Below are positions 31,091-64,000 of a DNA stretch of 64,000 nucleotides, piece after piece. Position numbers and translations under genes: made by a program. This DNA is from an uncultured bacterium (GTDB lineage Bacteria > Patescibacteriota > Minisyncoccia > Phycocordibacterales > GWA1-40-21), in NCBI GenBank assembly GCA_963840885.1, contig CAWJAN010000001.1:115051-179050 (forward strand). The letters run 5' to 3'. Every line of letters begins with the position of its first letter. Within the stretch, counting starts at the first letter, position 1. The notes beneath the pieces were generated by a model. The model did no database searches, was not told the origin of the DNA, and saw nothing but the letters and a program-made list of their open reading frames with translations.

Positions 31091-31117
31091 TTATTATCTT
31101 CTATTGATATAAATTTA

Positions 31118-34100
31118 TTATTGGCTGGAGCTTGTAGCTTCTGTACTCGTGCTGTCTGTAGTGCCGGTTGTCGTCGCCTGTTCCGTTTGAACCGGTTCGG
31201 TAACATCCACTTCTCTCGTTGCTTTTGCATTATTACCTGCAGCATCTGTTGCGGAATACGTTATCGCATATGTTCCCGCTGTGCTCGTATCTACAGTTCC
31301 GGAAGTTGTAACGGAAACGTTTCCGTCGACATCATCTGTCGCTGTCGCGCCGGCATCCGCATATGTGTCGCCCACGGTAAGGTTTACAGGATTTGAACCG
31401 TTCAGTGTTATGACCGGAGCCGTGGTGTCGGCTGGCGCTGGCGGAGTGGTTGTAGCTTCCGTATCGGTAGTCGTCGATGTCGTATCTGTTGTTGAGGCTG
31501 TATCGTCAGCCGAAGTCGTATCCGTGCTCGTTGAAGTGGTGTCGGTGCTTGTCGATGTTGTATCGGTCGAAGTTGATGTCGTGGATGATGAAGTTTCCGA
31601 GGTATCGGACGACTGATCGCTTCCCTGTCCCATTGCCGGAGACGGCGATGAAGGAATTATGGACATAAAATCTTTTGCGCCTTTCACAGCAAATGCCGTC
31701 CAGCTGAACTCGATATCTTCGGGCGCAGGATTATTTATCATTATCGTGAATCCATTCGTTGATTTATCGGCCACCAAATATTTGATCTCATTGTTGAATA
31801 TTGCGACAGAAACGGCGGCAGCATCAACTGAGCTGTCAAGAGAAATCGTGGCGTTCACTACAGGATCGACAAGATACGGCTTGTCGAATGTCACATCCAC
31901 GCTGGTAGCGCCTTTATATATGGTGGCAAATCCTGCTGTATCGGAATTGAAGTAAGGAGTGCCGAAGAAAATGGTATCCGAATTGAACGAAATTGCGTCA
32001 CTCAAAGAATTTACATGGTCTATCGTCAAGCCGTTTGCCGTTATCTGCGGCGTTATTATTTCCACTCCGGCGGCAAGCCTGCCGGTGAACAGTTCCGAGG
32101 AATTTTCTGCCGTTGATGTTCCGTTGAGAAGCTTGTCCAAAACTTGTTTTGCAAAATCGTCAGGATATATTCCATTGTCTATGTTTATTCCGGCAAATTC
32201 GCTTATGCTCTGTCCATTGTAATATCCTTGTTCAACATAAACCATTACCGTTGTCGATGTCGACGACGGAGACCATGAGCCGAGGGCTTTACCTATTACG
32301 AATCCCGCTCCGGTCGCTTTCATCGCTTTTCCAGGATCGTTTGAAGTCGTAAGATAATCTCCGGGATTTATTTCTTCCGAACTAGAGGAAATTTTTACAG
32401 GAACGCGTCCGTTAAGGGCTATCGGCATAGGATTGTCTTCCTTCTTTATATTATATCCGGCTGATGTGAAATTGCCGTGGTTGTCGGAAACTATTCCTAC
32501 AGTATTTTTCTGGTAAGGGCTGTTTGATTTTACGAGCTCTGTGATCTGGCCGAGAACATTATTGTAGTCTACAGACGTATCGGTTGCTGTGCCGTATGTG
32601 TTTACCAATTGCGAGCCGGTAACGACTATGTCGCCGTATTCGGTTCCTGTGGCGACCGGATAATTTTCAGCGTAGTCGGCGGATGGCGCTGAACTGCAAT
32701 CTCCGAGCGTATATATGCTGCCGGCCGAAGGAGATGTTCCTGTGGCCAATGTCGAACATACCGCCGTTGAAACGGTTGTAGTTGCAAGGCCGATGCTTAC
32801 TATTCCATTGCTGTTTACTGTAAATAATGACGTGTCGTTTTTCTTAAGATCTATGAAGTTTCCTGTAAACGATCCTCCGCCTTTTCCGAAATTCATCGTA
32901 AGCCCTTCTCCGGAGAATGCGGAGGTTTCCTGATAAAAGCTTGCCACTGACGTAGCTGTCGTCATGGTATTGGTGTAAAGCCTCAAGACATCTCCTTGCG
33001 TAGTTCCGTCATTTTCTGCATACAGCGCAGCAGGTAAAAGAACTCCTCCAGCATTTCCGGCAGTGATTGCCTGCAAGCCGAATGTCGCGCCGGTGGTTCT
33101 GATGCCGGTATTCACGCCGGAAGTGTTTGAACCTGCGTTCGAGACTATTTCCATTCCGCGCGTAGTATTTGCAAGAGTGGTGTTATCAACCATTCTCATG
33201 ATTTCTCCTACGACCGTATTTGCATTCGTGGTCGGCTGAACATTTACAACGAAACGGTTACCGACTTGAACGCCTCCGGCAGTAGGATTTACATTATAAT
33301 TTCCATTGATACCGGCGATGGCATTTGTAGCGCCGTCAGCCGAAACCGAACCGTCTATCAAAAGTTTCGCCAGAGAAAAAGATGTCGTTGTACCTATCAT
33401 CGCCTGGCCGCTTTGCGATATTGTGAAAAGATTTGCGCCTGTAGATGAGGAAACTGCGAACGGATTAATACCTGATGCTCCTTGTACCAAGAAACTTGAT
33501 GTTGAAGTCGTGGCGTTCACGCCAGCAACTGTTCCGTTATCGAAAAGGACGCCGGAACTTAGAGTTGAAGTGGATGTCCAGCGCGCCACCTTTCCATTAG
33601 TGCCTCCTGAAAGAATTGGTGAGGTTGTTGAAATAACATTTCCGCTTCCATCAACTGCAAGGAATGAGCCGACAAGTCCGTTGCCGAGTTTAAGATTTGA
33701 GATTGTTGTTGTTGCAAGTGTCGTCGTTCCGTTAATGGTAACTGAACCTGTGAATGTTGCTCCTGTAAGAGCTGCGAAGGTCGATGAAGCGTAAGTATAT
33801 GTCGGATAATTCGCGATTGTCGCATACGTTGATGTTCCATATGCGTATGTGGAGAATGTTGAAGATGCGTATGTGTATGTCGGATAATTCGTAAGGGTGC
33901 TAACGGTATTTGTTATGTATCCAGACGGATTAGATGCGAAATAATATGTGGAAGAAGCATAGCCAAATGATGGGAAGGTCGAGGATGCATACGTATATGT
34001 AGGAGTGTTTGCAAGAAGCGCATATGTGGAAGTTCCATAAGCATAAGTGACAAATGTTGATGATGCGTAAGTGAATGATGGGAAAGTTGAGGATGCGTAT

Positions 34101-40100: not shown

Positions 40101-40231
40101 AGCCTGCCTTGATAAGAAAGGATGGTAGGAACTCCATTTTGTGCAAAAACAAAATTTTCGCTTAATAACGGAGAAAAAGCGAAACAGAGGACAAACAATA
40201 AAATTAGTGATTTTTTATAGGTTTTTACCAT
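31118..40231 (-). CDS. giant repeat-rich secreted protein (about 3038 aa from the signal-peptide ATG) with fiber-like Tyr/Ser/Thr repeats and a C-terminal Ig-like (DUF5011-type) domain
   Basis: One uninterrupted 9.1-kb ORF. The signal peptide MVKTYKKSLILLFVLCFAFSPLLS starts at the ATG at 40229-40231. The central region of about 4.8 kb consists of near-identical tandem repeats with unit LSTTSAA(S/A)TYLTIANATATYPTFTY(G/A)SSTYLSQLQAAIDYVSTGTLATTLGGY. The C-terminus has a TSTSTDTT S/T linker. It ends in a segment PVITLNGSNPVNLTVGDTYADAGATATDDVDGNVSV...GTYAITYSATDAAGN, typical of bacterial Ig-like surface domains. Confidence 0.75.
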   Translation of the reverse strand: MVKTYKKSLILLFVLCFAFSPLLSENFVFAQNGVPTILSYQGRLADSSGNLLGGTGTNYYFKFSIWDNSTVGSGTKLWPASAPTSFSSQVRQGVFNVNIGDTVAGYPDILDYNFNTNNSIYLQIEVSSDNVTFQTLSPRQKITSAAFSQVAGAVSGAGQSSFGTTTPIDNSVVSILSTSTDSTALTVRAFLGQVANIFQIQDSTGTNIFSIDSNGLLSAADANFSGNISASNFTGTSTGINTGDESSSSIRTKLGIASSTNDGYLSSSDWTNFNNKISGSGVAGQLSYWTATGTLSSIGTSTDGMFLRASSTSPTGYDWVLASSSGGNGVWGAITGTLSNQTDLQAALDAKLSTTSAASTYLTIANATATYPTFTYGSSTYLSQLQAAIDYVSTGTLATTLGGYLSTTSAAATYLTIANATATYPTFTYGSSTYLSQLQAAIDYVSTGTLATTLGGYLSTTSAAATYLPLSASTSLPYIPSASSSDFYLASNPSGYISNISGQDLSTADNSTSGFITASALAPYLSTTSAASTYLTIANATATYPTFTYASTTFATISSLGGYLSTTSAASTYLTIANATATYPTFTYGSSTYLSQLQAAIDYVSTGTLATTLGGYLSTTSAAATYLPLSASTSLPYIPSASSSDFYLASNPSGYIDSSALAPYLTSATAASTYVPYTYASSTFVTYDYGSSTYQTTLTNPITGTGTAGQIAIFNSSSGLTSIATGTAGQFLQASSTAPNGYAWAFASSGSATVAWGAITGLLSDQTDLQAALDAKLSTTSAASTYLTIANATATYPTFTYASTTFATISSLGGYLSTTSAAATYLTIANATATYPTFTYGSSTYLSQLQAAIDYVSTGTLATTLGGYLSTTSAAATYLPLSASTSLPYIPSASSSDFYLASNPSGYISNISGQDLSTADNSTSGFITASALAPYLSTTSAASTYLTIANATATYPTFTYASTTFATISSLGGYLSTTSAASTYLTIANATATYPTFTYGSSTYLSQLQAAIDYVSTGTLATTLGGYLSTTSAAATYLPLSASTSLPYIPSASSSDFYLASNPSGYISNISGQDLSTADNSTSGFITASALAPYLSTTSAASTYLTIANATATYPTFTYASTTFATISSLGGYLSTTSAAATYLPLSASTSLPYIPSASSSDFYLASNPSGYIDSSALAPYLTSATAASTYVPYTYASSTFVTYDYGSSTYQTTLTNPITGTGTAGQIAIFNSSSGLTSIATGTAGQFLQASSTAPNGYAWAFASSGSATVAWGAITGLLSDQTDLQAALDAKLSTTSAASTYLTIANATATYPTFTYASTTFATISSLGGYLSTTSAASTYLTIANATATYPTFTYASTTFATISSLGGYLSTTSAAATYLTIANATATYPTFTYGSSTYLSQLQAAINYVSTGTLATTLGGYLSTTSAAATYLPLSASTSLPYIPSASSSDFYLASNPSGYISNISGQDLSTADNSTSGFITASALAPYLSTTSAASTYLTIANATATYPTFTYGSSTYLSQLQAAIDYVSTGTLATTLGGYLSTTSAAATYLPLSASTSLPYIPSASSSDFYLASNPSGYISNISGQDLSTADNSTSGFITASALAPYLSTTSAASTYLTIANATATYPTFTYGSSTYLSQLQAAIDYVSTGTLATTLGGYLSTTSAAATYLPLSASTSLPYIPSASSSDFYLASNPSGYISNISGQDLSTADNSTSGFITASALAPYLSTTSAASTYLTIANATATYPTFTYGSSTYLSQLQAAIDYVSTGTLATTLGGYLSTTSAAATYLPLSASTSLPYIPSASSSDFYLASNPSGYISNISGQDLSTADNSTSGFITASALAPYLSTTSAASTYLTIANATATYPTFTYGSSTYLSQLQAAINYVSTGTLATTLGGYLSTTSAASTYLTIANATATYPTFTYASSTFVTYAYGSSTYATSAALANYVPYTGASSNVNLGSNQLTVSGTSTFSTTTISGSANLSSILSVLGSSNLATTSISQLSLGNGIASTLLAADSLGNVIATSTANLLSGYVTNTYASSTFPSFTYASSTFVTYAYGTSTYALLANTPTYTYASSTFPSFGYASSTYYFASNPSGYITNTVSTLTNYPTYTYASSTFSTYAYGTSTYATIANYPTYTYASSTFAALTGATFTGSVTINGTTTLATTTISNLKLGNGLVGSFLAVDGSGNVISTTSPILSGGTNGKVARWTSTSTLSSGVLFDNGTVAGVNATTSTSSFLVQGASGINPFAVSSSTGANLFTISQSGQAMIGTTTSFSLAKLLIDGSVSADGATNAIAGINGNYNVNPTAGGVQVGNRFVVNVQPTTNANTVVGEIMRMVDNTTLANTTRGMEIVSNAGSNTSGVNTGIRTTGATFGLQAITAGNAGGVLLPAALYAENDGTTQGDVLRLYTNTMTTATSVASFYQETSAFSGEGLTMNFGKGGGSFTGNFIDLKKNDTSLFTVNSNGIVSIGLATTTVSTAVCSTLATGTSPSAGSIYTLGDCSSAPSADYAENYPVATGTEYGDIVVTGSQLVNTYGTATDTSVDYNNVLGQITELVKSNSPYQKNTVGIVSDNHGNFTSAGYNIKKEDNPMPIALNGRVPVKISSSSEEINPGDYLTTSNDPGKAMKATGAGFVIGKALGSWSPSSTSTTVMVYVEQGYYNGQSISEFAGINIDNGIYPDDFAKQVLDKLLNGTSTAENSSELFTGRLAAGVEIITPQITANGLTIDHVNSLSDAISFNSDTIFFGTPYFNSDTAGFATIYKGATSVDVTFDKPYLVDPVVNATISLDSSVDAAAVSVAIFNNEIKYLVADKSTNGFTIMINNPAPEDIEFSWTAFAVKGAKDFMSIIPSSPSPAMGQGSDQSSDTSETSSSTTSTSTDTTSTSTDTTSTSTDTTSADDTASTTDTTSTTTDTEATTTPPAPADTTAPVITLNGSNPVNLTVGDTYADAGATATDDVDGNVSVTTSGTVDTSTAGTYAITYSATDAAGNNAKATREVDVTEPVQTEQATTTGTTDSTSTEATSSSQ
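34400..39250. repeat. nested near-perfect tandem repeat array inside the giant gene (117-nt subunit, 360-nt unit, about 1.5-kb higher-order unit)
   Basis: Antisense ORFs at 34608, 34968, 35328 and 35688 are exactly 360 nt apart, and their translated proteins are identical. The 360-nt unit recurs at 34561, 34921, 35281, 35641 and 36001. A 117-nt subunit dominates 36060-36360. Blocks starting at about 36351 and 37902 are identical over several hundred bp (offset 1551 nt). A third divergent copy starts near 39177. Confidence 0.9.
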
Positions 40232-40363
40232 ACAAATAATGCCTGTACACTCAAATAAATGCCTTATTTGATCAACTGGCATTATTATAACACTGTATGC
40301 ATAGAATATACAAATATATGTTGATAAAAATACGTTTAAAAATATGGATATTTTATTCCATTG

Positions 40364-53097: not shown

Positions 53098-53237
53098 GAG
53101 CGAAAGCTTTTACGTTAAGTTTCATAAACAAAGTCAATTAAACTTATAATGAATCAACCGCATTAATTATACAAAGATGATTTTTTACGCACAAATAGCT
53201 ATTGTTAATAAAAAATCCGCCGGAGCGGATTATTTTG

Positions 53238-53310
53238 TGGGCGGTACAGGATTCGAACCTATGACCCTCTCTACGTCAAAGAGATGCTCTACCAACTGAG
53301 CTAACCGCCC
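53238..53310 (-). tRNA. tRNA-Val(GAC)
   Basis: Minus-strand cloverleaf GGGCGGT-TA-GCTCAGTTGGTAGAGC-A-TCTCT-TTGACGT-AGAGA-GGGTC-ATAGG-TTCGAAT-CCTGT-ACCGCCC-A. Confidence 0.8.
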
Positions 53311-53429
53311 ATATTATTTTTCTTTTTAAATTTGCTTCGCGATATTATCTGCCAGAACAGCTAACCGCCCAAAATATAAAATTACCTAAAAGATACTAGC
53401 ATAAAAAATTCAAAAGACAATTTTTGAAT

Positions 53430-54176
53430 TTAAATCTCTATTTTGGAGAATGACCAGCTTCCCAGCACCAAAAATACCAGTGTAAATAAAGAGAGGACGA
53501 GTATATCAAGTCCCAGCCCGAAATGAGTTGCGCCATCCAGAAGAGTCCTGAAAGCGTCTATTCCATATGAAAGAGGGTCCAGCCTGGCAAGAATATCTAT
53601 GACTTTAGGAAGGCCGTCGAGCGGAAAGATGGCGCCTGAGAGAAAGAATAATGGCATTATCAAAAAGTTTGATATGAGCTGGAATCCCTGCATATCATCA
53701 AGGTGGGATGCTATGAGAGTTCCGAGACAATTGAAGAGAAGTGCCACGAGAAACATTATGAATATTGCCGGAATAAGCATCAGCCAATTCCCTGGCCTGA
53801 AGCCTACGAAAAGCGATAGGAAAAATACGACAAGGCCCTGAAGGGTCGAGGTCGTTGCCCCGCCCATGGTCCTTCCTATCATTATATTGAATCTTGAAAC
53901 GGGGGCGGCCAACGTTTCCTTAAGGAAACCGAATTGCTTATCCCATATTACCTCTATACCGGAAAAGAAAGATGAGAAAATTATTCCCATGCCGATGATT
54001 CCCGGGACAAGAAAGCTCAGGTAATTCCCTTCTCCGGCTTTTTGGAAAACTGGGCCGAGTCCAAATCCTAAAGCCACCATGAAAAGAAGCGGCTGCGCCA
54101 AAGAACCGAGCATCCTCGATTTTGACCTGAAATATCTTTTAACCTGCCTAAGCCATAAAATGTAAATCGCTCTCAT
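53430..54176 (-). CDS. ABC-2 family transporter permease
   Basis: Six TM helices with the ABC-2 signature. Translationally adjacent to the ATPase gene. Confidence 0.8.
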   Translation of the reverse strand: MRAIYILWLRQVKRYFRSKSRMLGSLAQPLLFMVALGFGLGPVFQKAGEGNYLSFLVPGIIGMGIIFSSFFSGIEVIWDKQFGFLKETLAAPVSRFNIMIGRTMGGATTSTLQGLVVFFLSLFVGFRPGNWLMLIPAIFIMFLVALLFNCLGTLIASHLDDMQGFQLISNFLIMPLFFLSGAIFPLDGLPKVIDILARLDPLSYGIDAFRTLLDGATHFGLGLDILVLSLFTLVFLVLGSWSFSKIEI

Positions 54177-54184
54177 ATTTTTTA

Positions 54185-54988
54185 TTATCGTTTATTCCCG
54201 CCTCCCCACATTCTCCTTCCCATCCTCATATGGTCGACTCCCTTCGCTTCCTCTTCCCTTATCACTTTTCCTGTAAGCGAAAGAAAAGCTTCTTCCAAGC
54301 TGTTTGTGCCGGTTTTTTGTTTTAATTCCGACGAAGAACCCATGGCGATGATTTTACCGTGGTCTATGACGGCTATCCTTTGCGCCACTTTGTCGGCTTC
54401 TTCCATATAATGAGTCGTAAAGAAAATCGTAGTTCCTTCCGTCCTATTGAGTTCTTTGAGGTATTCCCACATGTGATTTCTGGTCTGCGGATCAAGGCCG
54501 AGCGTAGGTTCATCCAGAAACATTACTTTTGGGTGATGCAAAAGCCCCCGTGCAATCTCCAATCTTCTTTTCATTCCTCCGGAAAAAGTTTTTACAAGAC
54601 TGTCCTTCCTGTCCCAAAGTTCCACAAAATTCATAAGCTTCTCTATTCTTTCTTTTATGGTCTTCCTATCCATGCCGTAAAGCACCCCGTGAAATTCCAT
54701 ATTTTCATATGCCGTAAGCTCATCATCAAGAGATGGATCCTGAAAAACTATTCCGAAAGAATGCCTTACGCCGTTTGGATCTTCCTGAACATTAAAACTG
54801 TTCAATGTTATGTGTCCGGATGTCGGAGAAAGCAATGTGGTGAGTATCTTTATAGTGGTGGATTTTCCGGCGCCATTCGGGCCCAAAAACGCAAATATCT
54901 CTCCTTTGGCTACGGAGAAAGAGATATTATCTACCGCGGTAAAATCTCCGAATTTCTTTGTTAGATTTTCAACTTTGATTATGCTCAT
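54185..54988 (-). CDS. ABC transporter ATP-binding protein
   Basis: Walker A GPNGAGKST, signature LSGGMKRRLEIA, and Walker B VMFLDEPT are present. Confidence 0.9.
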   Translation of the reverse strand: MSIIKVENLTKKFGDFTAVDNISFSVAKGEIFAFLGPNGAGKSTTIKILTTLLSPTSGHITLNSFNVQEDPNGVRHSFGIVFQDPSLDDELTAYENMEFHGVLYGMDRKTIKERIEKLMNFVELWDRKDSLVKTFSGGMKRRLEIARGLLHHPKVMFLDEPTLGLDPQTRNHMWEYLKELNRTEGTTIFFTTHYMEEADKVAQRIAVIDHGKIIAMGSSSELKQKTGTNSLEEAFLSLTGKVIREEEAKGVDHMRMGRRMWGGGNKR

Positions 54989-55037
54989 TATTGTTTAGTA
55001 CGTTCCATTCTTAAAACAGATGCTTATATCTTATCAT

Positions 55038-55065
55038 AAAAACTGCGGAGAGGGGGAGATTCGAA
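55038..55065. repeat. 28-nt direct repeat of the 3' end plus trailer of tRNA-Ser (att-like scar)
   Basis: aaaaactgcggagagggggagattcgaa occurs at 55038-55065 and again at 55195-55222, where it forms the last ~20 nt of tRNA-Ser plus its trailer. The 129-bp spacer contains a degenerate T-arm-like motif (ggtttcgaatctcgc) and a nested inverted repeat. Confidence 0.7.
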
Positions 55066-55202
55066 GCTTACAGCTTCAGTACCCTCATTGGATATTTTAC
55101 TTCATTGTATTCGTAAAATATACACAATGAGGTTTCGAATCTCGCACGGAAGCGCCCCGCGCTTCCTCCTCTCGAAGTTTTTACACTGCGTTTAAAAAAC
55201 TG

Positions 55203-55289
55203 CGGAGAGGGGGAGATTCGAACTCCCGAGACCCTTTCGAGCCTACCGCTTTTCGAGAGCGGCGCTTTCAACCACTCAGCCACCTCTCC
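55203..55289 (-). tRNA. tRNA-Ser(CGA)
   Basis: GGAGAGG-T-GGCTGAGTGGTTGAAAGC-GCCGCT-CTCGAAA-AGCGGT-long variable arm-GGGAG-TTCGAAT-CTCCC-CCTCTCC-G. Confidence 0.8.
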
Positions 55290-55365: not shown

Positions 55366-55440
55366 GGCCCTATCGTCTAACGGTTAGGACACGGCCTTTT
55401 CAAGGCTGTAATCGGGGTTCGATTCCCCGTAGGGTCACCA
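55366..55440 (+). tRNA. tRNA-Glu(UUC), CCA encoded
   Basis: GGCCCTA..GTCTAACGGTTAGGAC-A-CGGCC-TTTTCAA-GGCTG..CGGGG-TTCGATT-CCCCG-TAGGGTC-A-CCA. Confidence 0.85.
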
Positions 55441-55473
55441 CTAGTATTTAAATACCAGTATTAAAATAAGACT

Positions 55474-56079
55474 ATGGATTTCAAAGTAAAATGTGAAAAT
55501 TGTGGAAAGATAACTCCACACACCCAAAGAGGTGAAGCTGTACAAAATGATGAGATAGATTGGGGGGAAGATGAACCAGCCCAAGAAATACATTGGAACA
55601 ATCTTTTATTACAATGCGACCTATGTGAAAGTGTTTCTTTGCACTATTTTTCTCCAGAAGTACGCGAGGAGTTAACTCAACAGTTTCCCATTATAAAAAA
55701 TTTAAATGGTGTACCTGCTAATGTGGCGAAATCTTATTCGGAAGCAAAAAAGGTAAAAAATATCTCGTCTTTAGCTTTTTCAACGTTAATAAGAAGAGCT
55801 TTAGAATCTGTATGTATAGACCAAAAGGCTGTAGGGAAAGATTTAAATAAAAAACTAGAAGATCTGGGTAAAAAAGGAATTATTCCTCAAACTCTATCAA
55901 AAATGTCTCATGCGATAAGATATTTTGGAAATATCGGCGCTCATGCTTCAGATATTGAAATTAGTGTTGAAGAAGTTCAAACCATGGATGATTTTTTTGT
56001 AGCAGTGCTAGAGTACGTATATATAGCTCCTCAGAAATTAAAAAGAGTAGAAGAACTTATGAAAAAGAAGAATAAATAG
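55474..56079 (+). CDS. zinc-ribbon plus DUF4145-like domain protein (defence-island-associated family)
   Basis: N-terminal CENCGK...CDLC zinc ribbon. The C-terminal helical domain has the DUF4145-type motif IRYFGNIGAHASD. It starts 34 nt after tRNA-Glu. Confidence 0.5.
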   Translation: MDFKVKCENCGKITPHTQRGEAVQNDEIDWGEDEPAQEIHWNNLLLQCDLCESVSLHYFSPEVREELTQQFPIIKNLNGVPANVAKSYSEAKKVKNISSLAFSTLIRRALESVCIDQKAVGKDLNKKLEDLGKKGIIPQTLSKMSHAIRYFGNIGAHASDIEISVEEVQTMDDFFVAVLEYVYIAPQKLKRVEELMKKKNK

Positions 56080-56106
56080 TTTTATAGATTACTTACAAAT
56101 ATTTTA

Positions 56107-56871
56107 ATGAGTAACAAAAATGAACAGATTACAGAAGATCAACATTATGTTCCCCAATTTTATCTAAGGCAGTGGCTGGATGAAACCGGCGGTTTCTATC
56201 CTGTAAAGATTGAAGAAAAACAACCTCCAAAATTAAAAATCTTTTCTGATAAATCAGATCAGAGTAGGTTTTGTTACGAAAACTTCTTCTATGCCCAACA
56301 CACAGGAGTTGAAGATGAAATAAGTCAAATTATTGAAAAGGAATTTGCAAAGATTGAAACAATATTTTCTCAAGAATTACCAGTTCTTGAGAAGAAGATT
56401 TTGAATTATGAGCATATTAACAATGGTGTTGTAGGAGATACCGGATAATCTGGATAGATCCTCTTGATACAGACCTTTCTCTTTCCTATACCTCCGTATT
56501 GCCTCACCTATATGGTTTTCATTGTTCATAGGATGAATTGTAGTTAGTTAATAAAAAAATGGTAAGACTGTGAAATGTATCCATTTGGACATGTTTTGTG
56601 GATAACTTTATTAGCTTTAAGAACAAATACTATGATTAGTCTTGAACAATTGAGAGAAGTTGAGCCTGCATTAAAAGATATGTTTGATAAAGAGGTAGAG
56701 CGTATTCGGGATCTCCTCTATGCCCAAGCCAAGATGGCCCTTGAATGCTTCCTGGAAGAGAAAACTGGTACTAAACAAGAGGTGCATGTTCCTGATTTTA
56801 GTTTTGACTCAAGAGAACGGGATGCACTCAAACGCTGTCAGGAGATTATGGATCTGAAAAAGAAAAAATAG
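56107..56871 (+). pseudogene. disrupted DUF4238-like gene (N-terminal fragment 56107-56448, possible C-terminal fragment 56575-56871)
   Basis: The N-terminal fragment starts with the DUF4238 hallmark HYVPQFYLRQW, but the ORF ends after 113 aa. A second 98-aa ORF follows in another frame after a 126-nt gap. Together they would make a protein of about 250 aa. Confidence 0.35.
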
Positions 56872-56889
56872 TGCTGTTGAGCGGATTTT

Positions 56890-57470
56890 GACTTTATTTT
56901 CCTATCCTATACAATTGGATTAACACCACAATTTTTTTCCTCTGCATTTGGGCATAATGCAAACACTGTAGATTTAGGTGTTCGGGAAAAGTGGTGCTGG
57001 ACCTAGCCCAAGTGGAGCCAACCATAAAAAAGCTAGCCGACTAAGCGTGTAGTCTAGACTCTAAGCTTATAGGCGAAATAAAATAGGAGTCACTTACTGG
57101 TGCCAATGCAGTTAAAAGGGGCTAGCCTCGTTAGCGATTTGGGAGACGATTTCCGGCTTTCTCTGAGGCGAAAAAAACAGGAAACAGTATAGTCCGTTGC
57201 TTTAGCCTTTGTGCTCGTACAAACAAAGGTAGCGGGGTTTTAACCTTTGTGTACCCGACTAAACGACAAAGGGAAGGGATTTTCTCTCTCTTGTATCCAG
57301 CGAACCAAACAAGTGAGAAAAAAGTTTATCTCTTGTACTGAACAAGGATAGCCAAAGAAGCGGCTCACGGCTTTAGGGCGAAACAGACAGTGGCTTCGGT
57401 TATTGCGTATAAGCTGAGCGCAATACATGATGAGCAAAACCCAGTTCTCGAGAACTGGGTTTATTTATTC
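56890..57470 (+). ncRNA. candidate large structured ncRNA (about 580 nt) of unknown class, ending in an intrinsic terminator
   Basis: No ORF of 60 aa or more on either strand across about 850 bp. Local GC is higher than the flanking island. Repeated stem motifs are present (cctttgt..acaaagg twice, gctagcc box twice). It ends in the perfect terminator aaacccagttc-tcga-gaactgggttt-ATTTATT at 57437-57470. Confidence 0.35.
57436..57470 (+). terminator. rho-independent terminator closing the candidate ncRNA
   Basis: 11-bp perfect stem, tcga tetraloop, T-rich tail. Confidence 0.8.
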
Positions 57471-57891
57471 CCCGAAACAGATATCTACTTTTTCTTTCTG
57501 CATGAAATTCTGGAAACTACGGAGATGTATTATAATGGCGTTCCAATTCTGGATAACGAGGGTCACCAACGTTGATATTGTGTGTAAAAATTCAATAATA
57601 CCTTGCAACTAAGCCACCCTTAAGGGGTTCCAAATCCAATTTTTCAAAAAGAGATTATTTAATTCTCTTAGTGATTAAAGGATACCCCTTCGGGGATTGG
57701 AACCGATAGCTAACTAAGGAGGATTGGAACTACTATTTTTTGATGTTAAACATCAGACCTTCTTTTTCAGAAAAAGGTTGCAAGATCGCAGTATTCAACT
57801 CCCTGTTCTTTACATAACGGAGGTATTTTTGGCTTGTTTTGATTGCAATCTGGTATCTCATATGTAACAAGAATACATTTGTGGATATATG

Positions 57892-59046
57892 CTACCGCAA
57901 CCGCAAATGTGTCGGCGCTATAAACTTTTGGATCTTTATACTCAGAAATTTGAGGGTATTTATAGACCATGTTCTCTGAGTTTCAAGATAATCTCTATAA
58001 AGGCCAATTAAATTTAATCTGAAAATATCATCGTTTTCTGGTTTAAATCTTGAAATTATGGATTCAAAAACATCATAAAGAAAAATACCTGTTTTCTCAC
58101 GTAATTTTTTGCTTTTATCCTTCGTTCTCACACCCCAACTGTAATTCCAACCAATACTAGACAAAGCTTTTAAAAGTAAATTACGATTCTCTTGTTCAAA
58201 TTCACTCTCAAAAAACCTTTTTATATTCTCAAAAAATGCAAAAATAAGATCATCATTATAATCAAGTTTTTTCTCATAACCCTCCTGGTTGTGAGCCATG
58301 TTCGCTCTGTGAATAAGTTCAAAATAATGACCGGCAAGTTTAATAAATGAAATTTTTCCATCAATACCAAGACCATTAAAACTGATTTCCTCAAATAGAA
58401 AATGAGAATGGTCAATTTCAGGATGCTTAACAAAAAGTTCGTCTAGATAAAATGACGAATTTGGATATATATGTTCATCTAGATAACCATTAAGGAATGA
58501 TTTCTGATTGTTCAAAGACAAGACAAAAAGATTGTTTGTGAATTGATTGATATGACGTAGTTTTTCCAAGGGAGTAGTTTTTATTTTTTTGAAGCCAAAT
58601 TCTAAAGTTTTTTCAAAAAGAAAAGCATGCTCAGAAAATAATGTTAATAATAAATTACTTCTGAAATAAGTAATAAAAACGGTCCTGGCATCATTATTTT
58701 CCAAAGAAAACTCTAAAAGAGAATCGTAAAAATAAACTATGTCGCCAAGATATTTCAGTACATCTTCCCCGTTTTTTTGTGTAAGTAATTTATTCAAATC
58801 TATAATAAAAAGTTTGATGTTGTACTTATTAAATTTTTTGAATGGTATAAATACAACAGAAGCATAAATAGTTATAGAACCTAACATGAAAATTCCACCC
58901 GTTATTTGGAGAAGAAATGGCTGAAAAATTTGAGTAAATTCAGCTAATAGAGTTGCTAGGACACTTGCTATACAAAAATAAATTGCAATAGAAACTGATA
59001 TTTTTCTAAGTTTAAATCGTAAACCAAGTCGCGTATCAAGCGACAA
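57892..59046 (-). CDS. AT-rich membrane protein (two N-terminal TM helices plus cytoplasmic domain), unknown; likely horizontally acquired
   Basis: 384-aa ORF with markedly lower GC than the rest of the window. N-terminal TM pair. No recognisable catalytic motif. A 67-aa ORF at 57767-57970 overlaps its 3' end in another frame. Confidence 0.5.
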   Translation of the reverse strand: MSLDTRLGLRFKLRKISVSIAIYFCIASVLATLLAEFTQIFQPFLLQITGGIFMLGSITIYASVVFIPFKKFNKYNIKLFIIDLNKLLTQKNGEDVLKYLGDIVYFYDSLLEFSLENNDARTVFITYFRSNLLLTLFSEHAFLFEKTLEFGFKKIKTTPLEKLRHINQFTNNLFVLSLNNQKSFLNGYLDEHIYPNSSFYLDELFVKHPEIDHSHFLFEEISFNGLGIDGKISFIKLAGHYFELIHRANMAHNQEGYEKKLDYNDDLIFAFFENIKRFFESEFEQENRNLLLKALSSIGWNYSWGVRTKDKSKKLREKTGIFLYDVFESIISRFKPENDDIFRLNLIGLYRDYLETQRTWSINTLKFLSIKIQKFIAPTHLRLR

Positions 59047-59099
59047 ACCGATAAGGGAAACTAAAATGGAGATTGCAGTTATAGCGACACCTAAATTAA

Positions 59100-59640
59100 A
59101 AGAAGAGACCGTTTCTTGTATTATTTTAATGCCCTAATTCAAAATCTTTTAATAATTCAAGATATTTGGCTTTTATATGTCGCTCTACCCAATTATCTGA
59201 AAGCTGACTTATTTCGCCGTTACTGCTGACAATTGAACTGCATGGCGCAAAATAAGAATCCCGAGTTGGTGTTGCGATAGAATAACCATGAAGGATCCGC
59301 ATGTTTTCATGAGTCTGTTCTAGACAATTTCCTTTATTTCCTTCGGATGCAAACTTGATGCTATATTTTACCTCTACAGATAGAAAACGTTCAACTTTCC
59401 ATCAGTTTTCTTTATCAATAAGAATGAAGTCGGGGGCATTTCTGAATATTGATTTAACGACTTTTTTAACTTCTACCGAAGTTTTGATATTGGGCTAACT
59501 CAGGAAGTGTGTATTCATAAGCAAAACGAAGTATGGTAAATTTCCCAACATCTCTGAACATAAGTGCGAAGATTAGTTCAGCGACTTTCCCTTTGATAAG
59601 GTCATGCGAAAATTTTTCAGTAGATTCCATTTATTTAGTA
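59100..59640 (-). pseudogene. frameshifted PD-(D/E)xK-type nuclease-like gene
   Basis: The minus strand reads MESTEKFSHDLIKGKVAELIFALMFRDVGKFTILRFAYEYTLPELAQ.., then a stop, and then in other frames ..PDFILIDKEN.. and WKVERFLSVEVKYSIKFASEGNKGN.... The D..E.K spacing (PDFILID...VEVKY) fits a restriction-endonuclease-like core. At least two frame breaks are present. Confidence 0.4.
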
Positions 59641-59674
59641 ATTTAAAGTCCAATAGCTTTAATTTTCTCGTCAA

Positions 59675-60341
59675 TTATAGCTGAACCTTTTGATTCCCGA
59701 GGAAATGAACCATCCTTATTGAAAAGGAAATTTCATGAGATGGGTGATTAACTTTCTTTGGAAATAGGGATGTAATTTTTTCAATATCAGTAAATGGTGC
59801 CACTTCTAACTTTTCTCCTGCAACTGCTGAAGTATGGCGACCAGAGGAGAGTGACCCCGTATTTGGGTTTTCCTCTATAAGTTTTCCCATTTCCGTGGCA
59901 GCTAACTGCCAATAGGTAGTAAGGGCTATTTCGTGTTCAGTGATAGACCCTTCATGAAATTTTTCGAGATGTTCTAATAACTCTTTCGTAGCATTCCAGA
60001 GAGAATCGTATTTCATTGATCCATCAGAGCTGAATCAATTCGTTGTCGATTCGACTCTACCATGAGAAAAAACATAACCTTTAACGAAAGGAATTCCATT
60101 TTTTACATCTAATTCAAATACTTGGATCCAACTGTCATCGATTTTTCCAAATAGGTGAGGATAATCGTTTAAACATTTTGCTTTCTGAGTTTCTCAGTGC
60201 TCGCGATTCAGCAGATGCAAACTCGTCTACGTGTAGCAATTGCGTTCTTTCTCGTCGTCTTTCTGACGATAAATACGATACGACCGTACCCACTTCAAGC
60301 GTATGCATGCGCCACAACAAAGGACTATAAGTGTTGTCCAA
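59675..60341 (-). pseudogene. fragments of a second decayed gene (ORFs 59675-60016 and 60135-60341)
   Basis: Contiguous minus-strand ORF fragments are separated by stops and frameshifts. No family recognised. Confidence 0.3.
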
Positions 60342-60644
60342 GTTCGACGGAGGATTTATGTCCTATTAGTTCAATTATAAGTTTTTTCGTAGAAAAATCG
60401 CAAATGTTGTCTATGTAGAATTGCAATACGGGATTAGACTGTTCTGACAAAGGTTACCAAGTTTGGTAACTTTCGACCCCTTGGCAAAAATTTCTTCAGG
60501 AGTATAGATCCAAATGAAGGAAGATATTTAGTCAACCAGTTTTTGGCAGGTCATTATCCTCATGTTTCTCAGAATCTTTAAAATGTAAAAAGTTTTTGAC
60601 CTGTCTCCAAATCTGGTTCCAATTTTCTAAACAGAGTGTCACCA

Positions 60645-61826
60645 ATGAGAATACTTGGAATTGAAACTTCGTGCGACGAAACTGCCGTCTGTATCATTGA
60701 AACGGGCGGCGATTTTCCTGAATCAAAAATAAAAATCCTGGGAAATGAGCTGTATTCTCAGATTGCCTTGCATGCGCAATATGGCGGAGTCTTCCCTAAT
60801 CTTGCAAAAAGAGAACATGAGAAAAATCTTGTTCCCCTGCTTTTGAAATGCCTTGAAGAAGCCGGCTTACTTAAACTGAATACCGACGCTTTGGTCGGGA
60901 CTACGACCAAAAGCGTCGGAGAAATAAAAGAAATGCTTTCCCATGAAAAAGAGCTTTTTGAAGCTCTTCAAAAAGAAGTTTTCAAAATCGGCAAGCCTGA
61001 AATAGATCTTATTGCCGTCACAAACGGCCCTGGCCTTGAGCCGGCGCTATGGGTCGGAGTAAATTTTGCAAAAGCATTGTCGCAGATATGGGGCATTCCA
61101 GTTATGCCCGTAAACCATATGGAAGGACACATTGTGGTTGCAGCGCTTGAACAAATAAAAAAAACTGAATATGAAATGAGGGCTGTAAACTTTCCAGCGA
61201 TGGCGCTTCTAATAAGCGGCGGTCATACGCAGCTTGTTCTTGTGAAAGATTGGCTTCATTACGAAATAGTCGGCAATACCAAAGACGATGCGGTCGGCGA
61301 AGCTTTCGACAAAGTCGCTCGTATTCTCGGGCTTCCTTATCCGGGCGGACCTGAAATATCAAAGCTTGCGGAAAAAGAAAGGACTGAATATACCGGCAAA
61401 AAAACTCCCTATCCGCTGACAAGGCCGATGATTCACTCAAAGGATCTTAATTTTTCTTTTTCCGGAATAAAGACAGCTGTTCTTTATCTGACAAAAAAGA
61501 TTCCGGATATGACGGATGTAATAAGGCAAGAAATCGCAAAAGAGTTCGAAGATGCCGTAACGGAAATACTTGTAAAAAAAACAAGTGAAGCTGCGGAAGA
61601 ATATAATGCCAAAACAATAATCCTAGGCGGAGGAGTGAGCGCAAACAAAAAAATAAGGGCTGATTTTATAGCTCTTGCCGGAGAATTAGGCTTAAATCTC
61701 ATGATACCTGAAATAAGTGCTTCCACCGACAATGCCCTCATGATAGCCGTTGCCGGATATTTTAACGCCAAAAATGGCAAAAAAACGTCTTCAGACTTCG
61801 AAGCTGACGGTAATTTGTCTTTATAA
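60645..61826 (+). CDS. tsaD: tRNA N6-adenosine threonylcarbamoyltransferase TsaD (Kae1/YgjD family)
   Basis: MRILGIETSCDETAVCI, metal-binding HMEGHI, and the ASKH-fold C-terminal half are present. A GTG at 60636 is a possible alternative start. Confidence 0.9.
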   Translation: MRILGIETSCDETAVCIIETGGDFPESKIKILGNELYSQIALHAQYGGVFPNLAKREHEKNLVPLLLKCLEEAGLLKLNTDALVGTTTKSVGEIKEMLSHEKELFEALQKEVFKIGKPEIDLIAVTNGPGLEPALWVGVNFAKALSQIWGIPVMPVNHMEGHIVVAALEQIKKTEYEMRAVNFPAMALLISGGHTQLVLVKDWLHYEIVGNTKDDAVGEAFDKVARILGLPYPGGPEISKLAEKERTEYTGKKTPYPLTRPMIHSKDLNFSFSGIKTAVLYLTKKIPDMTDVIRQEIAKEFEDAVTEILVKKTSEAAEEYNAKTIILGGGVSANKKIRADFIALAGELGLNLMIPEISASTDNALMIAVAGYFNAKNGKKTSSDFEADGNLSL

Positions 61827-61849: not shown

Positions 61850-62031
61850 CCATCAATTATGATACTGGCAGACAGACATCGAACCGGGGTCTTTGGCTGG
61901 AGACCCGGAAGAGGATAGCCCACACTTCCCTCTTTCAACGACAAAACGGCAAGAGCCCGTTGAGTTTTCTTTCAGGGAGAAAACGCAACCTAGCGCTCGG
62001 GGCCCTACCGACTCGGAGGGCCCTTTTTTAT
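61850..62031 (+). ncRNA. candidate small ncRNA (about 180 nt) with its own terminator, possibly SRP RNA-like
   Basis: ORF-free and structured: hairpin GTTG-AGTTTTC..GAGAAAAC-GCAAC, and a GGAA-tetraloop hairpin CCCGGAAGAGGATAGCC resembling SRP RNA helix 8 (GUCCGGAAGGAAGCAGCC). It ends with the terminator ggggccct-accgactcgg-agggccc-TTTTTTA at 61998-62031. Confidence 0.3.
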
Positions 62032-62088
62032 TGCGACAGAATATAAAAATATTTCCAAAAAACATTATTTTTGCTAATATAAGCTGAA

Positions 62089-64000
62089 ATGAATGAAAAG
62101 TTTTTAAAGCCGTACGACCCGAAAGAAACTGAACCGAGAATATACAAAACCTGGGAAAATTCAGGATTTTTTAATCCTGACAATCTTCCAAAAAGTCATA
62201 AGGAAAAATATTCGATAATAATGCCTCCTCCGAATGCAACCGGCGTGCTTCATATGGGCCATGCTCTTGGAATGACCATTGAAGATCTTATGATCCGTTA
62301 TCAAAGAATGCGCGGCAAAAAAGCACTCTGGCTGCCAGGCACTGACCATGCAGCTATGGCCACTCAGTCAAAAGTCGAAAAAGACATAAGAAAAAAAGAA
62401 AATAAATCCAGATACGATCTCGGCCGCGAAGAGCTTCTGAGAAGGATAGACGAATTCGTCGAAGGAAGCAGAAATACCATGACTTCCCAGATGAGGATTA
62501 TGGGTGCGTCTTGCGACTGGTCGCGGGAAGCTTTCACGCTGGATGAAAAAAGAAGCTTTGCTGTCCGCACTGTTTTCAAAAAAATGTACGATGACGGGCT
62601 TATTTACCGCGGATACAGGATAGTGAACTGGGATCCTAAAGGCCAGACGACTATTTCCGACGACGAGATAGACCACGAGGAACGAGACGCAAAAATGTAT
62701 ACCTTCAAATACTCTAAAGACTTCCCTATTTCCATTTCAACAACAAGGCCGGAAACGAAAGTCGGCGATGTCGCCGTTGCGGTCCATCCTGAAGATCCGA
62801 GATACGAAAAATTCGTAGGAAAGGAATATGACGCCGTTTTCTGCTCCGTTCCCATACACATAAAAATTATTGCCGATAAGGAAGTGGACAAGGATTTCGG
62901 CACGGGCGCTCTTGGCGTCACTCCTGCGCATAGCATGATCGACTGGGAGATGGCTGAGAGGCATGATCTTCCTAAAGATAAAATAGTAATAGATGAAAGA
63001 GCAAGGATGACGGTCGGAGATGAAAATATAAAGGAAAAGAAAACGACTGAAGCGAGAGAAGCCGTAGTCGAATGGCTTAAAAAAGAAGGGCTGCTGGAGA
63101 AGGAGGAAACAATAAAGCAGAATGTTTCGCTTTCGGACAGGACGGGGGCCTTGGTTGAACCGCTTCCAAAGCTTCAATGGTTTATCGGGGTTAACAAGCC
63201 TTTCAAGATTGAACACTCGGAAATACAAGGCATAAAATCAGGGCAAGAAACTACGCTGAAAGATATGATGAAAAACTCCGTGGAAAGCGGGCAGATTAAG
63301 ATAATTCCAGATTATTTTTCAAAAACTTATTTCCATTGGGTGAATAATCTGCGCGACTGGTGCATTTCTAGGCAAATCTGGTATGGACACAGGATTCCAG
63401 TCTGGTATAAGGGCGATTCTATTTATTGCGGAATTGAAGCTCCAAAAGGCGACGGCTGGACTCAAGACGAGGATACTTTGGATACCTGGTTTTCTTCCGC
63501 TCTTTGGACATTCTCCACGCTCGGCTGGCCGGAAAAAACCGAAGACCTGAAAATCTATCATCCCACTGATGTTATGGAAACAGGCTATGATATTTTGCCT
63601 ATCTGGGTGGCAAAAATGATACTGATGACGAATTATAATCTTGGCACTATACCCTTCAGCAAAGTCTATCTTCATGGCATAGTCCGCGATTCAAAAGGCA
63701 GAAAAATGTCCAAATCCCTGGATAACAATGTCGATCCCATAGATGTGGTGAATAAATTTGGCGCCGATGCCGCAAGAATGGCGCTCATCGTCGGCAATAC
63801 TCCGGGCACGGATTCAAAATGGTCGGAAGACAAAGTAAAGGGATATAAAAATTTTGCCAATAAGATATGGAATATATCCAGATTCGTGCTCGAATCGGCC
63901 ACTGATGAAAAATTTGACGAGAAATTCAGCGCATACTCTGATAACGATTCCAAGCTCGTAAAAGAAAGGGATGATTTTATTTCGGATGTAACCAAAGACA
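62089..64000 (+). CDS. valS: valyl-tRNA synthetase, N-terminal about 637 aa; the gene continues beyond the window end
   Basis: MNEKFLKPYDP..IIMPPPNATGVLHMGHALG carries the class I HIGH motif. The editing domain and the KMSKS motif (GRKMSKSLDNNVDP at about 63700) are present. The ORF is open at position 64000. Confidence 0.9.
   Translation, partial: MNEKFLKPYDPKETEPRIYKTWENSGFFNPDNLPKSHKEKYSIIMPPPNATGVLHMGHALGMTIEDLMIRYQRMRGKKALWLPGTDHAAMATQSKVEKDIRKKENKSRYDLGREELLRRIDEFVEGSRNTMTSQMRIMGASCDWSREAFTLDEKRSFAVRTVFKKMYDDGLIYRGYRIVNWDPKGQTTISDDEIDHEERDAKMYTFKYSKDFPISISTTRPETKVGDVAVAVHPEDPRYEKFVGKEYDAVFCSVPIHIKIIADKEVDKDFGTGALGVTPAHSMIDWEMAERHDLPKDKIVIDERARMTVGDENIKEKKTTEAREAVVEWLKKEGLLEKEETIKQNVSLSDRTGALVEPLPKLQWFIGVNKPFKIEHSEIQGIKSGQETTLKDMMKNSVESGQIKIIPDYFSKTYFHWVNNLRDWCISRQIWYGHRIPVWYKGDSIYCGIEAPKGDGWTQDEDTLDTWFSSALWTFSTLGWPEKTEDLKIYHPTDVMETGYDILPIWVAKMILMTNYNLGTIPFSKVYLHGIVRDSKGRKMSKSLDNNVDPIDVVNKFGADAARMALIVGNTPGTDSKWSEDKVKGYKNFANKIWNISRFVLESATDEKFDEKFSAYSDNDSKLVKERDDFISDVTKD

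Follow-up and report, generated by a model that had tools for sequence, protein, structure and literature searches.

What kind of DNA separates a tRNA-Glu gene from the core gene tsaD in the very small genome of a groundwater-type bacterium of the Patescibacteria (Paceibacteria), and how did it come to lie there? The window, that is, the whole stretch of 64,000 nucleotides analyzed, contains 5.2 kb of such DNA, which had been predicted to be an old mobile or defence island in decay. It is bordered on the left by a tRNA-Glu(ttc) gene with an encoded CCA end (55366-55440, plus strand; ARAGORN; Rfam, 61.7 bits), the presumed integration target, and on the right by tsaD (60645-61826, plus strand, alternative start 60636; Pfam TsaD, 4e-79), in agreement with the predicted borders. 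The island has a GC content of 0.35, the backbone one of 0.436. A sharp drop had been noticed in 57770-59700, and the lowest computed values (0.27-0.33) are located at 57800-59200. Only two ORFs in the island are intact, one for a RAZR/PD-T7-4-like protein and the other for a protein of 98 aa; the remainder are broken. It is quite likely that this gap is an insertion hot spot which holds immobilised, decaying acquired DNA with the history proposed below.

The gene following tRNA-Glu, whose product had been described as DUF4145-like, is intact (55474-56079, plus strand) and encodes a protein of 201 aa in which a zinc ribbon is combined with a DUF4145/HEPN domain. Pfam matched DUF4145 (PF13643) at 3.9e-19 over profile positions 1-87 of 88, the PADLOC PD-T7-4 model was matched at 7e-14 from residue 6 onwards (model positions 15-172 of 211), and phrog_1305 at 2e-28. 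RAZR/PD-T7-4 is a zinc-finger and DUF4145 HEPN RNase of abortive infection, which ties DUF4145 experimentally to phage defence, and R146 and H154 of E. coli RAZR are the catalytic Arg and His of its HEPN motif (PMC13017515). The protein in the window resembles RAZR in size (201 aa versus 219 aa) and in the two-domain architecture; a Cys4 ribbon can be read from the translation as two CxxC motifs (C7, C10, C48, and C51). Its R149 and H157 align with R146 and H154 of RAZR in PDB 9y9c (phmmer, 5.5e-5) with identical spacing. On the other hand, the similarity to E. coli RAZR is low and confined to residues 80-164 in the phmmer match, and the host differs in being a Patescibacterium. The gene product is probably still active as an abortive-infection RNase, triggered by ring-shaped phage proteins. 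The gene is thus flagged in a phylum whose phage defence is almost uncharted.

The next gene belongs to the DUF4238 family, a single-gene anti-T7 system reported from the P2 hot spot (Rousset et al., bioRxiv 10.1101/2021.01.21.427644). Both families, which the original prediction had called typical of abortive-infection and restriction islands, are experimentally linked to phage defence (PMC13017515; bioRxiv 10.1101/2021.01.21.427644). The gene is disrupted, as had been predicted: the fragment at 56107-56448 (plus strand; Pfam, 1.1e-12) covers only profile positions 2-81 of 281 before stop codons follow, and the full-length domain is absent. It shares the Pfam family with the anti-phage system and lies next to another single-gene defence system, but it cannot function because only the first approximately 96 of approximately 324 codons remain. 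It is fused to a convergent XRE/HTH_3 regulator or antitoxin-like gene (56377-56529, minus strand), of which the first approximately 38 codons are homologous (Pfam HTH_3, 3.9e-5, profile positions 1-28 of 55; NCBIfam Y4mF/HipB-type antitoxin, 1.1e-8). This truncated gene had been overlooked. Divergent from it lies the intact 98-aa ORF (56575-56871, plus strand), whose product matched no family in Pfam, PADLOC, NCBIfam, or PHROGs.

An intact counterpart of this left module was found in a metagenomic Logan contig, ERR12036782. It encodes the same RAZR-like (DUF4145) and 98-aa proteins, both identical to those of the window, and between these two genes it carries intact genes for a 324-aa DUF4238 protein, a 225-aa protein, and a 72-aa HTH protein. 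Thus, approximately 1.5 kb has been deleted in the window. The deletion junction was placed at 56395-56416 by comparing gene coordinates with the Logan contig and by noting where the Pfam homology stops; the 3′ portions of the DUF4238 and HTH genes were lost together with the complete 225-aa gene.

The right half of the island, read on the minus strand, contains only broken genes. Its first member is a 3′ stub of a DUF4411 (PIN-like) gene at 57767-57970 (Pfam, 8.1e-6; phrog_11126, 1.6e-5), which covers profile positions 109-156 of 159 and lacks the full domain. Adjoining it is the AT-rich membrane protein gene that had been predicted; its ORF (57892-59046) has a GC content of 0.27-0.30 and three N-terminal hydrophobic segments. 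Homologues, tblastn, and hydropathy place this gene at 57946-59133 in a rare family of approximately 535 aa with three N-terminal TM segments (alignment of 7 homologues). Residues 2-390 are present (tblastn, 389 aa in a single unbroken frame at 55% identity); a start codon at the family N-terminus and the C-terminal approximately 150 aa are missing. The DUF4411 stub starts exactly where this gene breaks off, at residue ~390, which defines a second deletion junction at ~57937-57955. Neither the stub nor the truncation of the membrane protein gene had been noted before.

The frameshifted PD-(D/E)xK-like gene of the original prediction was borne out as a pseudogene at 59126-59630. It belongs to a family of approximately 160 aa with an Hjc-like fold (motifs E21, PDF, and VEVKY) and has one frameshift and an in-frame TGA at 59404 according to tblastn; manual reading of the frames gave two further shifts and a TAG near 59322. 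The family has no Pfam match. Its alpha-beta-beta-beta-alpha-beta core with E, D, and ExK residues, which are invariant in the family, resembles archaeal Hjc-type Holliday junction resolvases and minimal PD-(D/E)xK nucleases. It differs from them in the extra N- and C-terminal helices and in having no sequence-level membership, and the window copy, unlike the Hjc-type nucleases, is a pseudogene. In two other genomes (L084 and L085), the nuclease gene adjoins Pif1 helicase and Endonuc_Holl genes in a prophage-like region. The further ORF fragments of the original prediction, up to about 60330, belong to one pseudogene (59643-60330) of a family of approximately 220 aa with a TM helix and a helical bundle. 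It has no start codon and at least nine indels, among them insertions of +7, +10, and +2 nt that lie outside homopolymer runs. The fragments are indeed related to the families named in the prediction: DUF4145, DUF4238, and the PD-(D/E)xK fold are all present. These are the first structural and contextual notes on three CPR-restricted families, the 535-aa membrane, the 220-aa helical, and the 160-aa Hjc-like nuclease proteins.

Is this DNA found at the same site in relatives? The comparison set consisted of the best 80 of 166 tsaD relatives in Paceibacteria, with 42-53% identity and 10-kb flanks. Among the species-representative genomes, the best tsaD match reaches only 53% identity, and the set contains no empty site from the same genus or species. 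In the 80 loci, a tRNA-Val/Ser/Glu cluster lies mostly 0-200 nt from tsaD, and tRNA-Glu abuts tsaD in many of them. The same orientation of tRNA-Glu and tsaD is found with a gap of 191 nt in the closest relative (L014), with a gap of 1-18 nt in five loci (L028, L030, L043, L045, and L072), and with a gap of 3-8 kb in six (L002, L009, L010, L018, L051, and L070), where the inserts are unrelated to that of the window. None of the island genes was found near tsaD in the 80 loci by blastn and tblastx, so that no relative in this set has them intact at the site. The tRNA-Glu/tsaD gap is a recurrent, routine insertion hot spot in Paceibacteria. The original prediction had called such an island unusual for a streamlined genome, which does not hold, since several other Paceibacteria have 3-8 kb inserts in the same gap. 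In very small Patescibacteria genomes, too, mobile and defence DNA comes and goes at a fixed hot spot, and the junction is a conserved landmark for finding variable islands in metagenome-assembled Paceibacteria genomes.

The inserts of these relatives also indicate what may have entered the gap. In L009, it contains a large serine recombinase (Resolvase, Recombinase, and Zn_ribbon_recom domains) with its ORF running up to the tRNA-Glu 3′ end, while the cargo in L010 and L018 includes DNA methylases, S24/LexA, and an SDH protease. In L083, an intact homologue of the 535-aa gene lies in the same orientation approximately 5.6 kb from a serine recombinase, which overlaps a 52-nt tRNA-Glu 3′ half 96% identical to that of the window. 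Thus, a homologue of one cargo gene of the window rides on a recombinase-bearing element beside tRNA-Glu. In contrast to the elements of L009 and L083, the island has no integrase or recombinase: none was detected by six-frame Pfam and PHROGs searches of 56380-57900, in the minus frames of 59050-60640, or among the listed ORFs, and tblastn found no remnant of the L009, L081, or L083 recombinases. Since no such remnant is detectable in the island, the mechanism of mobility is deduced from other genomes only.

Two copies of a 29-nt repeat (both plus strand) may mark the former ends of integrated DNA. The internal copy (57540-57568), a proposed fossil att site, ends in AGGGTCACCA, which is the last 10 nt of tRNA-Glu including CCA. 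The outer copy (60616-60644) abuts the ATG of tsaD and is proposed to be a relic of the original tRNA-Glu 3′ end (attR); L028, L030, and L043 have a live tRNA-Glu 3′ end at exactly this position before the tsaD start. The copies are identical at 22 of 29 nt, a value reached by 0 of 400 shuffles, whereas the similarity of the repeats to the tRNA is limited to the 10-mer (P about 0.05) and is weak overall. The repeats suggest two tandem insertions. Probably, two integrative elements were inserted successively into the tRNA-Glu 3′ end, and each insertion would have restored the tRNA and shifted the older 3′ end toward tsaD, leaving the repeats behind. The left segment (55441-57568) would have brought single-gene defence cargo, namely the RAZR/PD-T7-4-like gene, the DUF4238 gene, and the HTH and 225-aa pair. 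The right segment (57569-60644) may have come from a serine-recombinase or prophage-type element carrying the DUF4411 PIN, 535-aa membrane, Hjc-like PD-(D/E)xK nuclease, and 220-aa protein genes. Later, the recombinase genes would have been lost, two internal deletions would have fused adjacent genes, and indels and stop codons would then have wrecked the nuclease and 220-aa genes.

The repeats could instead be the two ends of one insertion of 57569-60615 into native sequence. It is possible, with rather less than even chances, that only this part is an element with a 29-nt target duplication, that 55441-56871 is a separate small defence insertion, and that 56872-57568 is a native tsaD spacer, possibly with a native small RNA gene. 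The GC content of the last segment (0.429) is at the backbone level while both flanks are at 0.30-0.34, each repeat copy matches the other better than it matches the tRNA, in relatives such as L012 a spacer (814 nt) precedes tsaD, and the Logan contig with the left module stops approximately 217 nt into the segment. Moreover, this backbone-GC segment of approximately 700 nt fits neither half of the island cleanly, which counts against tandem insertion. However, nothing like the segment occurs in the spacers of L012, L014, or other relatives, and the exact tRNA 3′ 10-mer with CCA at the end of the internal repeat is expected for a displaced tRNA end and not for a random target.

Does the segment itself encode something? 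It had been described as ORF-free and structured. The former is true, since no ORF longer than 65 aa exists in 56872-57766, while the latter was not supported by the fold z-scores of 141-nt windows (-1.7 to +1.8, an ordinary range) or by Rfam. The part at 56872-57539 has a backbone-like GC content of 0.43 and no coding or RNA family match; the rest (57569-57766) is a non-coding stretch with an inverted T-arm-like pair (57620-57633 and 57694-57704), as found by sequence reading, motif search, and local alignment to tRNA. That 56872-57539 is a functional, undescribed ncRNA of approximately 550 nt, either element-borne or host-borne, is doubtful. An ncRNA would account for the retention of a higher GC content amid AT-rich DNA; the plus strand has a promoter-like site at 56888-56915 (10 of 12 matches) and a terminator-like site at 57437-57462 (a strong hairpin and a T run), and the fold z-score over 556 nt is -2.95 on the minus strand. 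However, the plus-strand value is only -1.1, promoter-like sites are no more common than in shuffled sequence (17 versus 18), and Rfam 15 gave nothing at gathering thresholds and only chance-level matches at E up to 10. Likewise, no Pfam or PHROGs match was found, nor any homologue in 1.2 Mb of related loci, IMG/VR, or GenBank phages. There is an outside chance that the locus holds something more novel: either such an ncRNA, carried by Patescibacteria integrative elements or caught between them, perhaps as a regulator or partner of the HTH/defence module, or an uncharacterised CPR element family, represented by the tRNA-Glu serine-recombinase elements of L009 and L083, of which the island would be a fossil.

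The decay of acquired DNA, as read from the sequence, is documented by two clean deletion junctions, at least nine indels in the 220-aa gene, and at least one frameshift and one or two stops in the nuclease gene. These lesions back the predicted decay, and the absence of the genes from relatives backs their acquired origin. One point against the proposed history is that the 220-aa and nuclease families also occur in ordinary-looking chromosomal settings. It is very unlikely that the lesions arose from assembly or sequencing errors or from collapsed strain variants. The source is a metagenome-assembled genome, and the intact left module in a metagenome makes strain mixtures plausible; however, the rest of the window has unbroken ORFs of up to 3054 aa, the insertions in the 220-aa gene lie outside homopolymers, start codons are missing as well, both junctions are clean joins between homologous gene bodies, and 389 codons of the 535-aa gene can be read without interruption. 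That the region is vertically inherited, merely fast-evolving core DNA is hardly credible and largely refuted: the 220-aa and 160-aa families have many members across Paceibacteria (more than 268 and more than 85 clusters, respectively), but both are missing from the gap and its 10-kb flanks in 80 of 80 relatives, the GC content is deviant, and homologues of the island genes elsewhere adjoin integrases, recombinases, terminases, and Abi genes.

As immobilised acquired DNA, the island resembles tRNA-targeting integrative elements and genomic islands in its position directly 3′ of a tRNA gene, its deviant GC content, its absence from relatives, the different cargo at the site in different genomes, and perhaps the direct repeats with their weak likeness to a tRNA 3′ end. 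It differs from the elements of L009 and L083 in lacking a recombinase and in the degenerate repeats; it can no longer be mobile and is a fossil, probably a composite one. The term defence island applies to part of the cargo only. RAZR-like, DUF4238, HTH/antitoxin-like, PIN-like DUF4411, and nuclease genes are clustered at a hot spot where relatives carry RM methylases, as in defence islands, but only one recognised defence gene is intact; PADLOC recognised no defence system in the right half, which resembles what is left of an element of the serine-recombinase or prophage type. The island adds no new mechanism and is an ordinary kind of mobile-DNA wreck. It may record an order of decay, in which the recombinase was lost first and the cargo then eroded by deletions and indels, with the RAZR-like RNase gene outlasting the rest.

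The 5.2-kb region between tRNA-Glu(ttc) (55366-55440, plus strand) and tsaD (60636/60645-61826; Pfam TsaD, 4e-79) is a fossil of integrative DNA that targeted tRNA-Glu, and its cargo is mostly dead. The tRNA-Glu gene and the tRNA-Ser(cga) gene just before it on the minus strand (55202-55289) were located by ARAGORN and Rfam. The host belongs to the Paceibacteria group of the Patescibacteria, and its tsaD reaches 53% identity with its best match in a set of 185,579 species-representative genomes. The island has a GC content of 0.35, versus 0.436 in the remaining window, with a trough of 0.27-0.30 at 58000-59000, which bears out the sharp GC drop that the original prediction placed at 57770-59700. 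Beyond tsaD, the reading of 61850-64000 as a gene desert was rejected; this stretch is valS, which starts at about 62089 and continues past the window end.

Is the island core or acquired? I compared 80 tsaD loci with 10-kb flanks, and the tRNAs were located in each. The tRNA Val/Ser/Glu cluster beside tsaD is old synteny in this set. With the arrangement of the window (minus-strand tRNA-Ser, plus-strand tRNA-Glu, tsaD), tRNA-Glu and tsaD are separated by a gap of 191 nt in the closest relative, locus L014. The gap is 1-18 nt in L028, L030, L043, L045, and L072, 814 nt in L012, and 3-8 kb in L002, L009, L010, L018, L051, and L070. The contents of the expanded gaps differ from genome to genome; that of L009 includes a large serine recombinase (Resolvase, Recombinase, and Zn_ribbon_recom domains) whose ORF end coincides with the tRNA-Glu 3′ end, while DNA methylases, LexA/S24, and an SDH protease occupy those of L010 and L018. 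The window island had no match in the 80 loci by blastn, tblastx, or tblastn, so these relatives do not carry its genes at this site. Intact homologues of its broken genes were found in mobile contexts. In L081, the gene of an about 535-aa membrane protein family has a large serine recombinase, a terminase, and methylases as neighbors. Its homologue in L083 lies 5.6 kb from a serine recombinase, in the same orientation relative to the tRNA as in the window, and the 3′ end of this recombinase gene overlaps a 52-nt 3′ half of tRNA-Glu with 96% identity to that of the window. In L084 and L085, a nuclease family has Pif1, Endonuc_Holl, and terminase neighbors, and an about 220-aa family occurs near integrases, AbiEii, and HEPN_AbiU2 in L091. 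The empty or variable gaps in relatives and these mobile contexts therefore indicate that the island was acquired. Judged from the loci compared, the tRNA-Glu/tsaD junction is a routine hot spot and not an oddity; the original prediction called such an island unusual to see preserved in a streamlined genome, which the six gaps of 3-8 kb do not support.

The large serine recombinase ORFs of L009 (5031-6588) and L083 (6557-8261), whose ends fall within tRNA-Glu or at its 3′ end, encode proteins only 24% identical to each other and come from different Patescibacteria. This suggests a family of tRNA-Glu-targeting elements that would carry a replacement tRNA end within the recombinase gene. L010 repeats 14 nt of the tRNA-Glu 3′ end exactly (4416-4435), 166 nt downstream of that tRNA, where a methylase-rich insert of 5.7 kb starts; the match of 16/20 was reached by none of 100 shuffles.

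The integration history of the window island may be recorded in a degenerate repeat. The best match within the island to the 29 nt before the tsaD ATG (60616-60644) is 57540-57568, identical at 22 of 29 positions, while 400 composition-preserving shuffles gave a maximum of 21 and a mean of 17. The internal copy ends in AGGGTCACCA, the exact last 10 nt of tRNA-Glu including CCA, a coincidence with a P of about 0.05 taken alone. In L028, L030, and L043, the place of the outer copy is taken exactly by the live 3′ end of tRNA-Glu, which abuts the tsaD start. Both copies would then be fossil att sites left by displacement of the tRNA 3′ end, and the island would consist of two tandem remnants, 55441-57568 and 57569-60644. 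Alternatively, 57569-60615 was inserted singly and 56872-57568 is native spacer, which the backbone-like GC content of the latter (0.429) favors. No integrase, recombinase, or remnant of either was detected in the island by six-frame Pfam and PHROGs searches or by tblastn. A phage origin, as judged by direct similarity, was rejected: blastn gave no match in 50,697 phage records, and searches of IMG/VR with the family alignments A1 (the about 535-aa family) and A2 and with two 18-20-mers of the ORF-free segment found none.

The first gene of the island, for the DUF4145-like protein that had been noted after tRNA-Glu, is intact. It encodes a 201-aa protein (55474-56079, plus strand; Pfam DUF4145, 3.9e-19) that matches the PADLOC PD-T7-4 model (7e-14), phrog_1305 (2e-28), and the RAZR chain of a cryo-EM structure (PDB 9y9c, E 5.5e-5). 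RAZR, earlier named PD-T7-4, acts as an RNase in abortive infection. It combines a Cys4 zinc ribbon at the N-terminus with a DUF4145/HEPN domain, requires R146 and H154, and becomes active when it assembles around phage portal-like rings (PMC13017515). R149 and H157 of the window protein align to these two residues, and it has CxxC pairs at residues 7-10 and 48-51. The RAZR-like abortive-infection gene is probably still live. A metagenome scan with this protein for close relatives gave only proteins 48% and 26% identical. Looking up the exact tsaD, with either start codon, and the 384-aa and 331-aa ORFs gave no match.

The next gene is broken, as predicted. A DUF4238 fragment (56107-56448, plus strand) covers only profile positions 2-81 of 281 before running into stop codons; a protein of this family encoded in a P2 prophage hot spot confers strong T7 resistance (bioRxiv 10.1101/2021.01.21.427644). 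On the opposite strand, an HTH_3 fragment (56529-56377) has the first 28 of 55 profile positions and also matches a HipB/Y4mF-type antitoxin model (1.1e-8). A 3187-bp metagenome contig in Logan (run ERR12036782) encodes a DUF4145 protein and a 98-aa ORF product, both identical to those of the window (98-aa ORF, 56575-56871); in window terms it extends from the tRNA 3′ end to about 57088. Since intact genes for a 324-aa DUF4238 protein, a 225-aa protein, and a 72-aa HTH protein lie between the two on that contig, the window has lost about 1.5 kb at a junction at 56395-56416. The loss is so recent that the flanking proteins have stayed identical.

The right part of the island is on the minus strand. 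A 3′ stub of a DUF4411 PIN-like gene (57970-57767; Pfam 8e-6, phrog_11126) retains the last ~48 profile positions; this and the HTH stub were missed in the original prediction. The gene it described as AT-rich and encoding a membrane protein is there (59133-57946), with three hydrophobic segments, but its truncation was overlooked. It covers residues 2-390 in one unbroken frame, belongs to the very rare ~535-aa family (seven matches among 5.8 billion proteins), and lacks the last ~150 residues of full-length members. ATG, GTG, and TTG are absent at the family N-terminus, so the first hydrophobic segment is untranslatable. The homology ends at 57946-57955, about 10 bases from the onset of DUF4411 homology, and the alignments mark this as a second clean deletion junction.

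The predicted frameshifted PD-(D/E)xK-like gene is a pseudogene at 59630-59126, whose product, stitched across the frameshift, aligned with 85 proteins (~160 aa each) along 95-100% of their length. Invariant in this family are E21, D69 (in PDF), and E87-V-K89. Two frames are required in tblastn, with one in-frame TGA crossed, and my reading of the frames after VEVKY puts two further shifts and a TAG there. The further ORF fragments to 60341 are the remains of one pseudogene (60330-59643) of the ~220-aa family, which has more than 268 clusters at 50-70% identity and no Pfam domain. In a DNA alignment with two intact homologues (77% identity), the pseudogene has a scrambled 5′ end and nine or more indels, among them +7, +10, and +2 nt. 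The model combines a TM helix with a helical bundle, and no structural match to it was informative. A conserved operon of the two genes was rejected, since the neighbors of the homologues P0008, P0010, P0093, and P0117 differ. Mean column identity of the ~220-aa family is 80% over 50 clusters (alignment A5), and the DNA identity of 59630-60274 to L095 (837-1457) is 77%. This unusual conservation exceeds that of tsaD (53% to its best species-representative match) and hints at horizontal spread.

The original observation is confirmed, and its description as an old mobile or defence island in decay is supported. That the decay is an assembly artefact is very improbable, because the indels of the ~220-aa pseudogene are not homopolymer slips, the remaining window has ORFs of up to 3054 aa, and the junctions join gene bodies cleanly. 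An alternative code or recoded donor, considered for two in-frame TGAs, was rejected: the TGA at 60037 arises from a +1 insertion (ATT GAC to A ATT GA), the one at 59404 aligns with Asp/Gly and not with Trp, and there are frameshifts and TAA and TAG stops as well.

The segment described as ORF-free and structured is ORF-free, but a structure is not supported. It folds no better than shuffles: z ranges from -1.7 to +1.8 for the ORF-free stretch and all 141-nt windows, and for the 556-mer it is -1.1 on the plus strand, with only the minus strand reaching -2.95. No Rfam match and nothing in six-frame Pfam and PHROGs searches was found in it, and no homologue was found by nhmmer in 1.2 Mb of related loci, in GenBank phages, or by IMG/VR k-mers. 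A tmRNA, group II intron, or other known RNA was rejected (ARAGORN and Rfam negative), as was an eroded recombinase or other gene (Pfam, PHROGs, and tblastn with proteins of L009, L081, L083, and other loci negative). The single match of the longest open stretch among 1.84 billion representatives is an artefact of a 26-residue repeat protein. The GGATTGGAAC motifs at 57694 and 57721 were also rejected as CRISPR/tracrRNA-like; there is no array, and the eight motifs in the window are at chance level (4.6 +/- 2.5). On the plus strand, a ~550-nt transcript would fit between a promoter-like site (56888-56915) and a good terminator hairpin (57437-57462), but promoter-like sites are no more frequent than by chance. 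A noncoding RNA is unlikely, and the segment is most likely junk or eroded DNA. Two neighboring hairpins at 57196-57280 share the arms CCTTTGT ... ACAAAGG, with no significance found, and could be protein-binding sites.

Upstream of the island, an exact 28-nt direct repeat (55038-55065 and 55195-55222, 157 nt apart) resembles an att scar left by a further integration or excision at tRNA-Ser; the second copy comprises the last 21 nt of the minus-strand tRNA-Ser(cga) and 7 nt past it. A two-gene ABC transporter (53430-54988, minus strand) lies between tRNA-Val and tRNA-Ser (53237-55289). It may also be an insertion, though backbone-like in GC, because these tRNAs are only 20-100 nt apart in L014, L012, and L010. 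Elsewhere in the window, the sole non-tRNA Rfam match is a bacterial class A RNase P RNA (12398-12731, minus strand; 116.8 bits). Three giant minus-strand ORFs of 2394, 998, and 3054 aa (20868-40282) probably encode surface proteins and include near-perfect tandem repeats of 360 nt and 477 nt at 34515-37903.
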